From a virus, in UHGV virus genome UHGV-0370399: DNA of 64,000 nucleotides; one strand, written 5' to 3'. Below the pieces are notes generated by a model that had not been told where the DNA came from, made no database searches, and was given only the letters and a program-made list of their open reading frames with translations. Of this stretch, positions 3,176 through 44,051 are shown in pieces (the stretch's first letter is position 1; every line of letters starts with the position of its first letter). A program made the translations under genes and the position numbers.

Positions 3176-3400
3176 CTACTCAGACTTTTCAGTCTTCTTA
3201 TCGGATTTCTTACTAGTCTTCTTCTCAGCTTTCTGTTCAGGCTCCTTCTCAGAAGTTGCCTTAATAACCATATCAAGAAGCTCTGATAAGTCACTCTTCA
3301 GCAAAGTAACAGGCTGCTCGTTGTAGAAGTTTTTGTCAAGATAAACTTTGAACTCTTCTATAGAAGGAAATCCAAAAATTGGTACAGGTGTCTTAATCAT
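3176..3400 (-). CDS. hypothetical protein with Lys/Glu-rich C-terminus
   Basis: 74-aa ORF; C-terminal KKTSKKSDKKTEKSE tail. Confidence 0.45.
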   Translation of the reverse strand: MIKTPVPIFGFPSIEEFKVYLDKNFYNEQPVTLLKSDLSELLDMVIKATSEKEPEQKAEKKTSKKSDKKTEKSE

Positions 3401-3476
3401 TACTTAGTCTCTCCATAGGCATCTTTTAAGATTGCCTTGTTAATCATTTCAGCGATTGCAAAACGAACACATACAG

Positions 3477-4010
3477 CTATAATTGTAGGTTGCATTCTTT
3501 ACTTACCTCTTCAAGTTTAACTTCAGAGTCCTTAAGTCGTTTCTTATGAACTCTGAACCTCATTAGTGAGATGATGATACCAGCTAAAGGAACAACATAC
3601 AAGTACCAGACATCATGCAACTTTGCAGTAATCTGTGTAATGGTCAAGTCTTGAGCTATGTAGCTGATTGCTGATACAGCTAGTAATGTTGCTAAGAAGA
3701 ACACTAGTATCATAACAATATTTAGACAACCTCTGGCATGATATTCATGCTTAATGCACTTATTCTTCTCTTCAACAACCCTGTTGTAGTCATTTGTAAA
3801 GTCTCTGTAGAAAGCTTTCAAGTATTCTTGAGTGTAGCCTTCAAAGCAACCTGTACCGTACCAATAGTCACCACCAAAGTGTGCTATGATACCGGTATCC
3901 CCATTTGGTTTGGTTACTCTAAGAGAAGTATGATGACCAGTCTTCTGGTAATCTATTTTGTATCTTTCTTCGTAAATCATTTCCCAAACCCTCTCAATCG
4001 TTTGTTCCAC
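3477..4010 (-). CDS. membrane protein (soluble N-terminal domain, two C-terminal hydrophobic helices)
   Basis: 177-aa ORF; hydrophobic stretches LNIVMILVFFLATLLAVSAISYI and YLYVVPLAGIIISL. Confidence 0.5.
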   Translation of the reverse strand: MEQTIERVWEMIYEERYKIDYQKTGHHTSLRVTKPNGDTGIIAHFGGDYWYGTGCFEGYTQEYLKAFYRDFTNDYNRVVEEKNKCIKHEYHARGCLNIVMILVFFLATLLAVSAISYIAQDLTITQITAKLHDVWYLYVVPLAGIIISLMRFRVHKKRLKDSEVKLEEVSKECNLQL

Positions 4011-34351: not shown

Positions 34352-35539
34352 ATGGCGGTAGGTGAAATTCAAATTAGTGCCTTGCCTCAAGCAGCCTTAC
34401 CAATTGACCTTAGTGATATCTTCCATCTTAAGCAGGGTATTGAGGATAAGAGATGTACTCTTGAGCAATTACTTGCTCCACACTCAAGCCTAAGAAATAA
34501 CCCTCATGGTGTTACTAAAACACAAATTGGTTTAGATAACGTTATCAATGCTCTTCAGTTAGTTGCTGCAAATAACTTATCAGACGTTACTAATGTAGCT
34601 CAGGCAAGAGCAAATCTACAGATTATGTCTTCAGAAGAGGTTAATAATCTTGTTCAACAGCATATTCAGGACAAGAGCAACCCACATAATACAACTAAGG
34701 TACAGGTAGGATTGAGTAATGTTCAGAACTGGACAACATCTAACCTTTATAACGAAGATGCAGATAAGTATGCTACAGCAAGAGCAGTAAATAACTTGTA
34801 CAAGGCTGTTCAGGCTTCCTATCCAGTAGGTACTATCCATCTTTCCATGAACTCTGCAAACCCTTCTACATATTTAATTTGTGGAGGAACTTGGGAGTTA
34901 GTTTCAAAAGGTAGAGCATTGGTTGGTTATGACTCTGATACAAGACCAACAGGCTCTGTATTTGGTGCTTCAACTGTCACTTTGTCAGTTAATAACATGC
35001 CACAACACTCACACTCTGTGTCTCTTAGTGGTGGTGGTCACACCCATAATGCAACGGTGTCAATTTCAGCTTTTGATTATGGAACTAAGACTACCAACTC
35101 TTTTGACTATGGAACAAAGACCACTAACACGACTGGTAACCACAACCATGTGGGCAGTGGGTCAACAAATGCGGCTGGTGCTCACAACCATAGATTGACC
35201 TATGAAGCAGGTGGTGGTTTATCGGAAAGACCTGCAATGGTTTGGTCTACAAGGAATGACCAATCATGGTACTCAGCAGATGCTGTCTGTGAAGTCGCTG
35301 GTTCACACACTCACTCTTTCAGTGTTACCACTAACACGACTGGTAACCACAGCCACACGGTTGGTATTGGTGCTCACAGCCACACGGTTGGTATTGGTTC
35401 ACATACACACAATGGTACTGTAACAGTTTCTTCTTCTGAGCATACGCATAGCGGGAACACTAACAGTATTGGTGGTGGACAAGCTTTTAACATTGAGCAG
35501 CCATCCTTCGTACTGTATGTATGGCAGAGAACAGCTTAA
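34352..35539 (+). CDS. tail fiber protein with His-x-His repeat C-terminal domain
   Basis: C-terminal half rich in HxH motifs (HSHSVSLSGGGHTHNATVS, GNHNHVG, AHNHRL, SHTHSFS, GNHSHTVGIGAHSHTVGIGSHTHNG, EHTHSG); C-terminus ...FVLYVWQRTA shared with the next gene. Confidence 0.7.
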   Translation: MAVGEIQISALPQAALPIDLSDIFHLKQGIEDKRCTLEQLLAPHSSLRNNPHGVTKTQIGLDNVINALQLVAANNLSDVTNVAQARANLQIMSSEEVNNLVQQHIQDKSNPHNTTKVQVGLSNVQNWTTSNLYNEDADKYATARAVNNLYKAVQASYPVGTIHLSMNSANPSTYLICGGTWELVSKGRALVGYDSDTRPTGSVFGASTVTLSVNNMPQHSHSVSLSGGGHTHNATVSISAFDYGTKTTNSFDYGTKTTNTTGNHNHVGSGSTNAAGAHNHRLTYEAGGGLSERPAMVWSTRNDQSWYSADAVCEVAGSHTHSFSVTTNTTGNHSHTVGIGAHSHTVGIGSHTHNGTVTVSSSEHTHSGNTNSIGGGQAFNIEQPSFVLYVWQRTA

Positions 35540-40888: not shown

Positions 40889-41248
40889 TTATGGGAACAA
40901 ACACTTAATGTCATCGTTTTTGAAAACGAAACTTGTGTAGTTATGACCATCAACATCCAACCAAACAGCCTGAACATCTACACCATCAAGATTCTGGTAA
41001 AGCTCTTTGATGAAGTGGTCTTTCACAATCTGGCTACTAGTGGTTTCCAGCTTGATGTTTGAGATTGCTGAACCTACAGCCATATAGCCCATGACACGTT
41101 TCTTCTCAGTATGCTTAATCTTACCATCTTTGTAAGCCATAATGAGATTGGAAAGAATCTTTACACCATAATACTTTTCAAGGTGAGTAGGTACACCATA
41201 AAAGCCTAATGCGAAGTTTTCAGAGTGGATAATGTTTTCACGTTTCAT
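40889..41248 (-). CDS. hypothetical protein
   Basis: 119-aa ORF. Confidence 0.5.
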   Translation of the reverse strand: MKRENIIHSENFALGFYGVPTHLEKYYGVKILSNLIMAYKDGKIKHTEKKRVMGYMAVGSAISNIKLETTSSQIVKDHFIKELYQNLDGVDVQAVWLDVDGHNYTSFVFKNDDIKCLFP

Positions 41249-41249
41249 A

Positions 41250-41579
41250 TTAGTCTGCCAACCTTAAATTGAAATTAACACCAAATTTTTCACATACTTC
41301 CAACATATACTCAAGGGAAACATTACCAGTGAGGTGGATTATGTTGGATACACGAGCCTGAGAGATACCACAAATTTTAGCAACTTGCTCTTGAGAAAGA
41401 CCTCTGGATTTAATCTCTCTCTTAAAACGATGTGCAACGAAGTCTCTCATTTCGTCTACATCCATTGGACAAATATAACTCTCCATTTCAGCCTCTCTAT
41501 CAGCCTCCCAATCATCTTGTGGGGCATAAGGGTCAAAAACCTCATTCATCTTTCTTCTTCCGTTTGCGTGAAGTGTCAA
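41250..41579 (-). CDS. helix-turn-helix DNA-binding protein (possible transcription regulator)
   Basis: C-terminal HTH-like segment LSQEQVAKICGISQARVSNI; acidic N-terminus. Confidence 0.5.
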   Translation of the reverse strand: MTLHANGRRKMNEVFDPYAPQDDWEADREAEMESYICPMDVDEMRDFVAHRFKREIKSRGLSQEQVAKICGISQARVSNIIHLTGNVSLEYMLEVCEKFGVNFNLRLAD

Positions 41580-41754
41580 TCAATGAATCTATGTTTGTAG
41601 CCCTAACCTTTTCACGTTCATCATTAAGATAATCATCAAGAGCCTTTTCAATCTGTGAATCATCTTGACAGATAACTGTAAAGACTGTAAATCCGTCTGT
41701 ATCGTCAATTATCTTACCATAACCGCTTCTGGGATGTAACTTTTTAAGAGCCAT
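41542..41754 (-). CDS. hypothetical protein
   Basis: 70-aa ORF. Confidence 0.4.
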   Translation of the reverse strand: MALKKLHPRSGYGKIIDDTDGFTVFTVICQDDSQIEKALDDYLNDEREKVRATNIDSLIDTSRKRKKKDE

Positions 41755-41755
41755 A

Positions 41756-42139
41756 TCAAATACCTGTGCAGCTTCTGTTTTCTAAGAAATACTCCACACC
41801 ATACATAGCTTTTTGCATCAAATCTTCTTTAAACTGGATACGGTGGTTGAGCATCGCCTGTACATCAATATCGTCATGGTGTTTCTCTTTAATGTTTGCA
41901 GATTGCAGGAAATACTCTGCAAGAACACGATACTGGTAGTCAGTCACCTTATCAGTCATCTCTGTCAAAGACTCTTCAGAGATGGGTTTCAGTAGCTCAC
42001 CATTAGCTAGAGCAACACCTTTTACAATCTGGCAAGTATCTTCTGGAACACCTGACAAGTCCACATTTGGGAGTTCTGTTGCATTGACTGGTAAATTCAT
42101 TGCCATAACCATTGCAGCAGCTAATAAAATCTTTTTCAT
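41756..42139 (-). CDS. secreted or periplasmic protein (signal peptide)
   Basis: N-terminal MKKILLAAAMVMAMNLPVNA signal-peptide-like sequence. Confidence 0.5.
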   Translation of the reverse strand: MKKILLAAAMVMAMNLPVNATELPNVDLSGVPEDTCQIVKGVALANGELLKPISEESLTEMTDKVTDYQYRVLAEYFLQSANIKEKHHDDIDVQAMLNHRIQFKEDLMQKAMYGVEYFLENRSCTGI

Positions 42140-42185
42140 AATGACCTCAAAGTTATATTAAATTTTGTATTACATTGAGTATAAA

Positions 42186-42214
42186 AATAAGCTATAACAC
42201 CTGACTTGTCAACA
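42186..42214 (-). promoter_or_regulatory. Candidate minus-strand sigma70-like promoter inside an 11-bp perfect inverted repeat (AATAAGCTATA / TATAGCTTATT)
   Basis: Minus-strand TTGACA (plus 42209-42214), 17-bp spacer, TATTTT; inverted repeat arms at 42187-42197 and 42220-42230. Confidence 0.4.
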
Positions 42215-42239
42215 GATTTTATAGCTTATTTGGCAGATT

Positions 42240-42475
42240 TTTTATAAGGCTACTGCCATCCTTCCATACCAAACCTCACCTGACCTCGCCTAACCCTACC
42301 TTACCCCACCATACAGCACCTTATTAAAACACCCTGTTTAAAGACCTTTTAAAAAGGTAAGTCTCATTTTAATGTAGCTGAGACTAACTACCCATACCGA
42401 ACCTCACCGCACCATACTACACCTGACACCACCTTACACCACCGCACCATACCTGACCGAGCTACACATCACTTA
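42240..42475. repeat. A/C-rich low-complexity segment with two related copies (CATACC(A/G)AACCTCACC...); G/T-rich on the minus strand
   Basis: Direct reading; no ORF; copies near 42255-42320 and 42395-42470. Confidence 0.6.
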
Positions 42476-42559
42476 AAAACCCTTTTCAAAGACTCTTAAG
42501 TGATGCTGGTGAGTACCCGTTGGTTTATGCTGCTCAGCATACTCACCAAATTTTCTATG

Positions 42560-42748
42560 TCAACAACTTTCTAATAAAGTTTTATGAAGATTTTGCTTAA
42601 CAACCCGCCTCACATGCCTGTGCTCTTTCTTAATAAAGAGTGACCTCTTCTTGATAGAGCGCCTATTCTTGTAAGTATTACTAGGATACTTATCATGAAC
42701 CGGACAACAGCTACCCGGATTGGTAAACTTGATAATCTCTCTTTTCAC
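42560..42748 (-). CDS. hypothetical small basic protein
   Basis: 62-aa ORF. Confidence 0.35.
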   Translation of the reverse strand: MKREIIKFTNPGSCCPVHDKYPSNTYKNRRSIKKRSLFIKKEHRHVRRVVKQNLHKTLLESC

Positions 42749-43848
42749 TATTCATAATCCCTAATAACTAACCCGACAGGGAACTGTAAAGAACCCTTAC
42801 GAGTCATCTTCTGAAACTGAACCGTTAAAGGCTTCCCGATAAACTCTTCAGGATGTTCAGCAAGATACTGTTTCTTCTCGTGTGTAGTCTTCCATGAGAC
42901 ATCTACAAAGACGTTAGGAAGCGTCTCTACAACGAACTTACCATGACCACGTTTATCGGTCTTGACACCAGTAACTTTAAACTCTTCAGTGTGCATCTTC
43001 TTGTGCTTAATCAAGAAGTATGAACGGTGACTACACTCGTAGAAAGATTCTTCAGAGATTGAACGGTACATTGCACCTTCAAACTTAGCTTCAACCCACT
43101 TATCATGGGCTTCATCAAACTCTTCCCAAGAATTTACACGGATAGTCTGTACAGGAACAACTCTACAGGTATCCCCAAGCTCAACAATTGGTGAATTATC
43201 AATAACTTCACGACGCTCAGGCCAAGTTTTTGAATTGTCGCAGATATCATACCAGTAGAATTTAAGAAGGTGACGGTCTGGATTGTCAGCATTCTTAATC
43301 ATAGATACAATATCTTCTAAGTCCCAACCATGAGCATAAATCTCTCCATCAAAGTCTTCCACTTGCGGATGTAATTTAAGCAACAAAAGCAAATCTGGGA
43401 TTAGTTCTGTTGGAACGTTGTAAACAGTATTCTCACGAGAATAGGCTGTGAAACTAACTGAATCAGCATCTCTTGAAATCCTACAACGTACACCATCAAG
43501 TTTTGGTTGAGCATCAGCAGGGAACTTCAGATACTTTGCATGGCTAACCTTTGCAGCATCATGAGCAAGCTGTACACCTACCTTCTCAGTATTCTGTGCA
43601 GATTCTTTTGTATAAGCATAACCTTTACGGTCAACTTGCTTTTTATACTTAGCAGCAACTTCAAAGAGAGCTTGCTGTTCAGCGTTACGCTCATTCTTTT
43701 TACCGATGTTCTTAGGCTCTGCTGTATACTCTTCAAACATCATCTTGCCATTCTCTTTACCGTAGGTTGTAATAACTTTGTCACCTACAGCAACACATGA
43801 CCAGACGTTAAAAGAGCCGTCTTTATTTTGTTTGTACAGAATTGTCAT
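42748..43848 (-). CDS. ATP-dependent DNA ligase
   Basis: Adenylation motif I PKLDGVRC (KxDGxR); size (366 aa) like T7-type ligases. Confidence 0.8.
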   Translation of the reverse strand: MTILYKQNKDGSFNVWSCVAVGDKVITTYGKENGKMMFEEYTAEPKNIGKKNERNAEQQALFEVAAKYKKQVDRKGYAYTKESAQNTEKVGVQLAHDAAKVSHAKYLKFPADAQPKLDGVRCRISRDADSVSFTAYSRENTVYNVPTELIPDLLLLLKLHPQVEDFDGEIYAHGWDLEDIVSMIKNADNPDRHLLKFYWYDICDNSKTWPERREVIDNSPIVELGDTCRVVPVQTIRVNSWEEFDEAHDKWVEAKFEGAMYRSISEESFYECSHRSYFLIKHKKMHTEEFKVTGVKTDKRGHGKFVVETLPNVFVDVSWKTTHEKKQYLAEHPEEFIGKPLTVQFQKMTRKGSLQFPVGLVIRDYE

Positions 43849-44051
43849 TTTCTCTTACCACCAATCTCTACGTCGATAACTTGAACATCGCCAGCAACAT
43901 CAAACTTATGTATGATGCTTTCCACAGTATAAGTCCAACCATCAATGCGAACCATCTCACCTTCTCGTGGAACTATTGGATTACGTTGAGCTACAGTTGT
44001 AGTGGAGTGAACAACATCATAACGATAGATATAGTTTACTAGGACTTCCAT
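43845..44051 (-). CDS. hypothetical protein (start trimmed to internal Met with RBS to resolve overlap with the upstream gene)
   Basis: ORF track gives 43845-44150; Met at 44051 has a GAGG RBS and avoids an 89-bp overlap. Confidence 0.4.
   Translation of the reverse strand: MEVLVNYIYRYDVVHSTTTVAQRNPIVPREGEMVRIDGWTYTVESIIHKFDVAGDVQVIDVEIGGKRK

Follow-up and report, generated by a model that had tools for sequence, protein, structure and literature searches.

Two tandem VIPR-type guide RNA genes in a Felix-O1-like phage, probably orphaned by the loss of vipr and vap1

A duplicated, A/C-rich intergenic segment in the genome of a Felix-O1-like phage most likely consists of two tandem vrRNA genes of the SUSP1 type (type II), directed against a satellite and orphaned by the loss of vipr and vap1, of which they would be recent and still intact relics. 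VIPR is an RNA-guided DNA silencing system of phages whose loci have vrRNA genes on either side of the gene for a small RAMP protein, Vipr, and of an accessory gene, vap (10.64898/2026.04.26.720920). The vrRNAs are of about 100 nt and are composed of 9–16 YNNGG repeats, in which GGY is conserved and NN hypervariable; after the repeats comes an invariant tail, which in the SUSP1 clade adopts a pseudoknot. Double-stranded DNA is recognized through pairing with the NN dinucleotides, one target base being skipped per repeat, and transcription is repressed (10.64898/2026.04.26.720920). In the corresponding structures, one Vipr protomer is bound per repeat, the GGY is flipped into protein pockets, and the 3′ pseudoknot caps the filament (10.64898/2026.04.26.720927). 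Neither preprint (10.64898/2026.04.26.720920, 10.64898/2026.04.26.720927) is yet peer reviewed, and the whole mechanism rests on them.

The kind of element described here, VIPR vrRNA genes, is already known, and the novelty of the present analysis is modest: it resides in the guide-only state of the locus, in a layout pointing to repeat-mediated deletion, and in the polymorphism found in the phage population. Since the survey reported in the first preprint was seeded from the Vipr protein (10.64898/2026.04.26.720920), guide-only loci lie outside it.

Results

Two phased pentamer arrays lie in an intergenic gap

The window, by which we mean the whole 64-kb stretch of DNA that was analyzed, derives from a Felix-O1-like myovirus: positions 41000–44000 have matches in 260 phage records, nearly all of them from Felixounavirus, with 80–97% identity. 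A preliminary description had noted two related low-complexity segments in this region and had considered the minus strand to be the meaningful one. Both segments are indeed present in a 420-bp gap between minus-strand genes (42140–42559), and the choice of strand is borne out by the pentamers, which are in register there. The term low complexity has to be abandoned: on the minus strand, both blocks are made of in-register NNGGT pentamers, an order that had been missed. When counted over 12 units at 5-nt spacing, GGT is in phase at 9 of the 12 positions in each block and at 4 or fewer elsewhere, on either strand of the 64-kb window, and the blocks are therefore real and far beyond chance. Furthermore, ACC at period 5 ranks second among 64 trinucleotides examined at periods of 4–12, surpassed only by a repeat of 11 nt at the beginning of the window that is unrelated to the blocks. 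The GC skew falls to −0.75 at the blocks, and the skew profile of the window displays no switch at the locus.

The duplication also exceeds what was first described, as every tract has a conserved leader and a conserved tail (Table 1). The module of block B comprises the L2 leader, 16 units, and the T2 tail, and that of block A the L1 leader, 12 units, and the T3 tail. The motif shared by the two blocks, CATACC(A/G)AACCTCACC, corresponds to the 3′ ends of the tracts (...GAGGTT(T/C)GGTATGG) read in reverse complement.

Table 1. Features of the guide gene locus and its boundaries, in window coordinates
Feature	Position	Strand	Description
DNA ligase gene	42748-43848	minus	Small ORF downstream of ligase; flanks the gap
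P1, sigma-70-like promoter TTGACA-16-TATGCT	42536..42563	minus	Just upstream of the first guide module; 10/12 in a consensus scan
Leader L2 (CACTTAAGAGTCTTTGAAAAGGGTTTTTAAGT)	42471..42502	minus	Pre-tract of the SUSP1 vrRNA1/vrRNA4 type; near-identical in relatives and SUSP1
vrRNA-B tract	42394-42470	minus	16 NN+GGY units; canonical GGY 10/15; 77 nt = 5n+2; NN string GA GT TC CA AT GC GG AA GG CA GT AT GC GA TC AT
Tail T2 (GGGTAGTTAGTCTCAGCTACATTAAAATGAGACTTACC)	42356..42393	minus	3′ hairpin plus pseudoknot
T-run + leader L1 (TTTTTAAAAGGTCTTTAAACAGGGTGTTTTAAT)	42323..42355	minus	Forms, with tail T2, the 71-nt inter-tract segment
vrRNA-A tract	42266-42322	minus	12 NN+GGY units; canonical GGY 10/11; 57 nt = 5n+2; NN string AA GC AT GG AA AG TA GA CA GA TT AT
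Tail T3 (GGAAGGATGGCAGTAGCCTTATAAAAAATCTGCC)	42232..42265	minus	Terminal tail type; identical in the last vrRNA of SUSP1 and in 25 relatives
P2, promoter TTGACA-17-TATTTT of the 127-aa gene	42184..42227	minus	Promoter scan; downstream boundary, outside the guide genes
127-aa gene	41756-42139	minus	Other flank of the gap

The arrays were not detected by Tandem Repeats Finder because they are too degenerate, and a search of Rfam 15 in E-value mode returned chance matches only. A coding repeat was rejected: ORFs of 40 aa or more do not extend into the gap, and stops occur in all three frames of the tracts (e.g. GGTAAGGTAGGGTTAGG). A CRISPR array, that is, identical direct repeats of about 25–40 nt separated by unique spacers, does not describe the locus either, which has pentamer tracts with leader and tail in place of a repeat-spacer layout and gives no Rfam match.

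Other features of the window deserve mention in their own right. A basic ORF of 62 aa with a GTG start (42560–42748, minus strand) is located between the ligase gene and P1, and the same stretch is unannotated in SUSP1. Iteron-like tandem repeats are found at 1–258, 600–722, and 1152–1197, with periods of 33/22/11 nt and 31/62 nt and recurring TGTTAAG words; they may represent an origin or have a regulatory role. At 35070–35410, there are two short tandem repeats, each consisting of about two copies, with periods of 27–30 nt.

The module plan is conserved in related phages

The comparison set consisted of 23 IMG/VR loci, fetched via the neighboring 127-aa protein, and two GenBank loci. Arrays are always found on the gene-sense strand in these relatives, with one to five per genome, and they follow one module plan: a conserved AT-rich leader, of which there are two types, precedes the tract, and after the tract comes a likewise conserved tail of about 38 nt (types T1–T3). 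Conservation in relatives had been proposed as a check on the segment, and it is what we observe, leaders, tails, GGY, and phase being fixed across related phages. Indeed, in the 692 units of 65 arrays, conservation reaches 99% for the central G, 89% for the flanking G, and 92% for the T, while both NN positions are near random. The leaders, the tails, and the downstream promoter are nearly invariant, and NN content and unit number vary even where the neighboring protein is 100% identical, with visible slippage of units. The distance from leader to tail is exactly 5n+2 in 84 of the 86 parsed modules, which argues that only indels of whole units are tolerated. Tracts whose register is lost occur at L024 3675–3742, in a vipr-less phage and in the allele family of guide B of the window, and at L012 2400–2472, in a genome bearing vipr; the former may be an example of decay.

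The P1 site is kept in all relatives, mostly with a TATACT −10 box, and AYO145A has an annotated promoter at the equivalent place; the TATGCT box of the window is weaker than the TATACT of the relatives. Both guide genes are presumably transcribed on the minus strand from P1, and what is said here of the processing and of the present-day activity of the vrRNAs in this phage we infer from sequence. A terminator scan called no canonical terminator at the locus. Downstream of the guide genes, the −35 box of P2 is bracketed by a 9-bp inverted repeat (AAGCTATAA / TTATAGCTT) that is invariant in all relatives; this repeat is perhaps an operator, for which the HTH regulator encoded downstream would be a possible ligand.

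The tails were aligned as 16 variants, including both tails of the window and one from a satellite, in an essentially ungapped manner. The resulting model comprises a hairpin (columns 11–15 with 32–36) and a pseudoknot (columns 5–8 with 19–22), in which 99.3% of cells pair and 8 of the 9 pairs display compensatory double changes, compared with 43% of cells or fewer in slid controls; the structure was derived from the same sequences that were used to score it, and the variants represent few independent lineages. T3 fits this model via compensatory changes (GGCAG/CTGCC and AAGG/CCTT). In a thermodynamic fold of the vrRNA-B of the window, the tract is open and the tail hairpin is formed, and the T2 hairpin alone has a predicted energy of −10.4 kcal/mol (z = −2.25).

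Beyond these relatives, scanning IMG/VR with GGTNN ×6 returned, among the matches listed, many unrelated contigs having array clusters with short conserved separators, as well as microsatellites and coding repeats. Since unrelated contigs carry such clusters, the element is part of a widespread class. The unrelated contigs include L061 (2215–3404, at least 12 head-to-tail GGY/NN tracts with a 26-nt separator), L049 (minus strand, 3394–3841, seven tracts with a 13-nt separator), and L070 (minus strand, 11520–12040, at least eight tracts with the separator TTGGCAGGT); very large head-to-tail sets were also seen in L047, L057, and L121. The large sets of these six contigs are probably other types of VIPR array, such as the staggered arrays of the preprint.

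The locus occupies the slot of the VIPR genes of SUSP1

The model phage SUSP1 shares its subfamily with the phage of the window, although the latter is a Felixounavirus and not a Suspvirus. The gene order in SUSP1 is ligase, vrRNA1, a 195-aa gene, a 146-aa gene, vrRNA2–4, the 127-aa gene, and a regulator; the same two genes (orf090 and orf089 of AYO145A) are located between two array clusters in 15 of the 25 relatives. The product of orf090 (195 aa) is 97.9% identical to the SUSP1 protein and keeps 9 of the 10 residues contacting GGY or the skipped base, at the positions named in the structural preprint. The 195-aa protein has no Pfam match and falls in PHROG 4652, of unknown function, and its nature as the RAMP protein Vipr is taken from the two preprints (10.64898/2026.04.26.720920 and 10.64898/2026.04.26.720927). 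Vipr is 98–100% identical across the clade, and in unrelated contigs, homologues that share only 37–40% identity likewise have GGY/NN arrays at their flanks, on the same strand. The 147-kb record of Staphylococcus phage SA1, GU169904.1, moreover includes the Felixounavirus vipr gene in a copy with 99.5% identity (91679–92263), which suggests that this record contains Felix-O1-like sequence.

The locus of the window shares with type II VIPR of the SUSP1 clade the GGY/NN pentamer tracts, whose 16 and 12 units lie within the range of about 9–16, the two types of leader, and the types of invariant folded 3′ tail, T3 being identical and T2 nearly so. Also the same are the position in the genome, with the DNA ligase gene on one side and the 127-aa gene on the other, the class of target in an E. 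coli satellite, the 1-nt skip rule, and the position of the skipped base at the wobble. It differs in that neither an adjacent vipr nor the accessory gene vap1 is present in cis, and in that it has the first and last modules only.

Both guides match genes of an E. coli satellite

The first preprint names a satellite whose baseplate protein resembles YP_009199407.1 of SUSP1 (10.64898/2026.04.26.720920), and when 5,426 complete E. coli genomes were searched with the DNA of the corresponding gene, 474 contained homologues. The satellite is an island of about 11 kb with genes for a Dam methylase, an HNH endonuclease, tape-measure and baseplate proteins, and a serine recombinase, the tape-measure and baseplate genes being related to those of this phage group. 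The skip rules were implemented in code, and all 60 unique guides were compared with seven satellites under each of them, the threshold being an NN match of at least 80% without gaps. With a 1-nt skip, 38 of the 60 guides reach this threshold, whereas none does so with a skip of 0, 2, or 3 nt. The published 1-nt skip code is replicated independently with Felixounavirus guides.

Guide B of the window matches the tape-measure gene (L152 9693–9739) at 27 of 32 NN positions (84%), with 12 consecutive core units at 24/24, and the site scores 26/32 in three other satellites. Guide A matches a small satellite ORF (L149 6626–6660) at 21 of 24 positions (88%), with three mismatches. None of the shuffled guides (500 shuffled by unit and 500 by base) reaches the scores of the window guides, the best being 23 for guide B and 20 for guide A. 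Because both target sites start at codon position 1, in frame, the skipped base is the wobble base. A BLAST search of 5,426 E. coli genomes with a synthetic perfect site retrieved no better site for guide A, only the same site with three mismatches in about 100 genomes. Within the window, no self-target stands above background, the best NN matches being 0.71 and 0.62.

Neither vipr nor vap1 is found in any of the seven satellites. It has been reported that satellites carry vrRNAs without vipr (10.64898/2026.04.26.720920). The satellite of E. coli GN25 (L151 3129–3193, minus strand) encodes its own vrRNA of 13 units, with a T1-like tail whose hairpin is kept by compensatory changes.

vipr and vap1 were probably deleted between repeats made of guide-gene parts

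Searching the 64-kb window, out of a genome of about 86 kb, with Vipr and Vap1 by tblastn gave a best E value of 0.26. We infer that vipr is also absent beyond these 64 kb from an 81.6-kb IMG/VR contig (L005), whose flanks are 100% identical to those of the window and which is not among the vipr-bearing IMG/VR contigs, and from relatives; the complete vipr-less relative LF82P2 has neither vipr nor vap1, and two arrays only. Around 118 of some 260 related GenBank records carry vipr, about half being vipr-less.

Loci bearing vipr are arranged as T2-T1-[vipr vap1]-T2(n)-T3, and vipr-less loci as T2-T3 or T3 only. In the vipr-bearing genomes, a 70–71-nt segment made of the T2 tail and the L1 leader is present on both sides of vipr-vap1, 1.4–1.5 kb apart; these bracketing direct repeats are 94–97% identical, with exact blocks of up to 56 nt. 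It looks as if a single crossover between them would give the layout of the window, with the 71-nt inter-tract segment as the probable deletion junction. Furthermore, guide B and the first upstream vrRNA of the vipr-bearing phage L010 represent one allele (94% NN identity), and the guides of vipr-less phages match those in first or last place in particular vipr-bearing phages, with 79–96% NN identity; guide A has no close allele among the vipr-bearing phages sampled. The locus is mosaic, since L010 shares guide B but is not the closest relative in the flanks. On the trees of both flanking genes, vipr status is interspersed among the 25 genomes, with at least 7–8 changes of state, and loss, or loss followed by regain through recombination, is therefore recurrent.

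Orphan guides in two-module loci look intact

If the orphan guides are relics, decay is expected, and their intactness could equally mean that they are maintained by selection. They might be loaded by the Vipr of a co-infecting relative, giving protection without the cost of the protein, or act as decoys soaking up the Vipr of a competitor. We regard this as unlikely, and the evidence falls on both sides. In orphan loci with two modules, the promoter, leaders, tails, 5n+2 register, and GGY content are indistinguishable from those of vipr-bearing loci, and satellite matches are found for 8 of 14 orphan guides as compared with 30 of 46 guides of vipr-bearing phages. Guide A of the window and the guides of L001, L011, and L015 match satellites even though no close allele of them was sampled in vipr-bearing phages. 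Any copy of Vipr should load any guide in the clade, given its 98–100% identity, and the use of guides in trans has a precedent because satellites carry vrRNAs without vipr. That about half of the related phages are vipr-less also speaks for such a strategy. On the other hand, orphan loci with one module (L003, L009, and L017) have partly degenerate guides without satellite match, which fits a progressive decay, and the orphan guide of L024 has lost its 5-nt register. GGY integrity is 70% in two-module orphan guides and 76% in guides of vipr-bearing phages (p = 0.27), a comparison of low power because the flanks differ by only 4–11%, so that a neutral tract of 60–80 nt would still look intact.

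Discussion

Our preferred reading is that the two guide genes are recent relics of a type II VIPR locus, and the following scheme would account for their features. Transcription from P1 on the minus strand would yield both guide RNAs, each predicted to consist of a GGY/NN pentamer tract (16 or 12 units) that ends in a 3′ tail with hairpin and pseudoknot. As described in the preprints, each pentamer would be bound by one protomer of Vipr, a minimal RAMP protein, with the GGY flipped out, and the NN dinucleotides would be presented to double-stranded DNA, every third target base being skipped, so that transcription is silenced. In an ancestor of the phage, vipr and vap1 would have been lost by one homologous crossover between the tail-plus-leader repeats, leaving the first and last modules. 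During single infection the RNAs would still be made as recent and intact relics; as Vipr is probably lacking, the guides would then be inert. They could work only with the Vipr of a co-infecting relative, for which they are presumably competent because Vipr is nearly identical across the clade.

Two other explanations of the G-rich repeats were weighed. The preliminary description had proposed G-quadruplexes or the binding of a regulatory protein. That the arrays are a G-rich DNA or RNA element folding into such structures, or a DNA site through which a regulator controls the neighboring replication genes, we find very improbable. Two-tetrad G-quadruplexes built from GG runs are chemically possible, and the region has a strong G/C skew and, on that strand, a G4Hunter value unsurpassed in the window; however, this value, reached by the best 25-nt window, is 1.48, and the means are 0.71 and 0.93, where a G-quadruplex is called from a G4Hunter score of at least 1.5 or from at least four G-runs of three or more. 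Runs of GGG number two in block A and none in block B. A quadruplex would moreover leave unexplained the Y that follows GG, the 5n+2 register with its whole-unit indels, the pseudoknotted tail, and the in-frame NN matches under one skip rule. As for binding by a protein, it holds in another form, since in relatives it is the RNA transcript that is bound, by Vipr, and not a regulatory site in the DNA; Vipr itself is absent here.

The arrays also call to mind the targets of TRAP in Bacillus trp leaders, where a ring protein controls attenuation by binding (G/U)AG repeats with uninformative spacers. Reminiscent of the B. subtilis TRAP target are the conserved triplet followed by a 2-nt spacer, the number of repeats (about a dozen; 11–16 here), the binding of single-stranded RNA by one protein subunit per repeat, and the hairpin and T-run that lie downstream. 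We nevertheless deem it extremely unlikely that the arrays are a TRAP-like attenuator or a protein sponge, in which a ring protein would read GGU triplets, termination would take place at the tail hairpin, and NN would carry no information. The NN are informative, as 38 of the 60 guides match satellite genes at a 1-nt skip and none at other skips, and the spacers are here guide sequence. The triplet is GGY and not the (G/U)AG that is found 9–11 times in a TRAP site, and the partner in relatives is a RAMP protein that forms a DNA-binding filament and not a ring (10.64898/2026.04.26.720927). The in-frame satellite matches of the NN under one skip rule also led us to drop a Rho rut site in antisense C-rich RNA, an R-loop replication origin, arrays of primase sites, Chi-like sequences, and DGR-like adenine mutagenesis of an (AAGGT)n template.

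The relic reading places these genes beside other cases of guide genes that persist without effector genes, namely orphan CRISPR arrays, phage mini-arrays, and solitary repeat units. As with orphan CRISPR arrays, the guides could use an effector supplied in trans or interfere with it; they differ from them in having no repeat-spacer organization, the information being spread over dinucleotides in a pentamer scaffold. To our knowledge, there is no acquisition machinery for VIPR-type guides. The layout can also be compared with the PeSL cassettes of T4-like phages, which are variable gene cassettes flanked by repeats. In both, short conserved regulatory repeats flank accessory genes and permit their recurrent loss and gain by homologous recombination, but the repeats are here parts of guide genes, a tail and the next leader.

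VIPR, reported only in 2026, brought a new RNA-guided code for DNA recognition and has been proposed as an ancestor of CRISPR effectors. One may speculate that about half of the Felix-O1-like phages are VIPR "cheaters", which have lost vipr-vap1 by recombination between the repeats but still express, under selection, intact guides against the shared satellite that are loaded by, or titrate, the nearly identical Vipr of co-infecting kin. We doubt it; if true, guide-only genotypes would be maintained as a strategy of a social or competitive kind, and the repeats would have a second role, as homology arms through which the cassette is regained. The present locus indicates that VIPR guide genes are recognizable from raw sequence alone. 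It also indicates that the system is polymorphic in nature, its effector genes being repeatedly lost or gained between repeats made of guide-gene parts, and that the orphan guides left behind escape protein-centered surveys. These observations bear on the cost and spread of VIPR and on the sharing of guides in trans among co-infecting phages and satellites.
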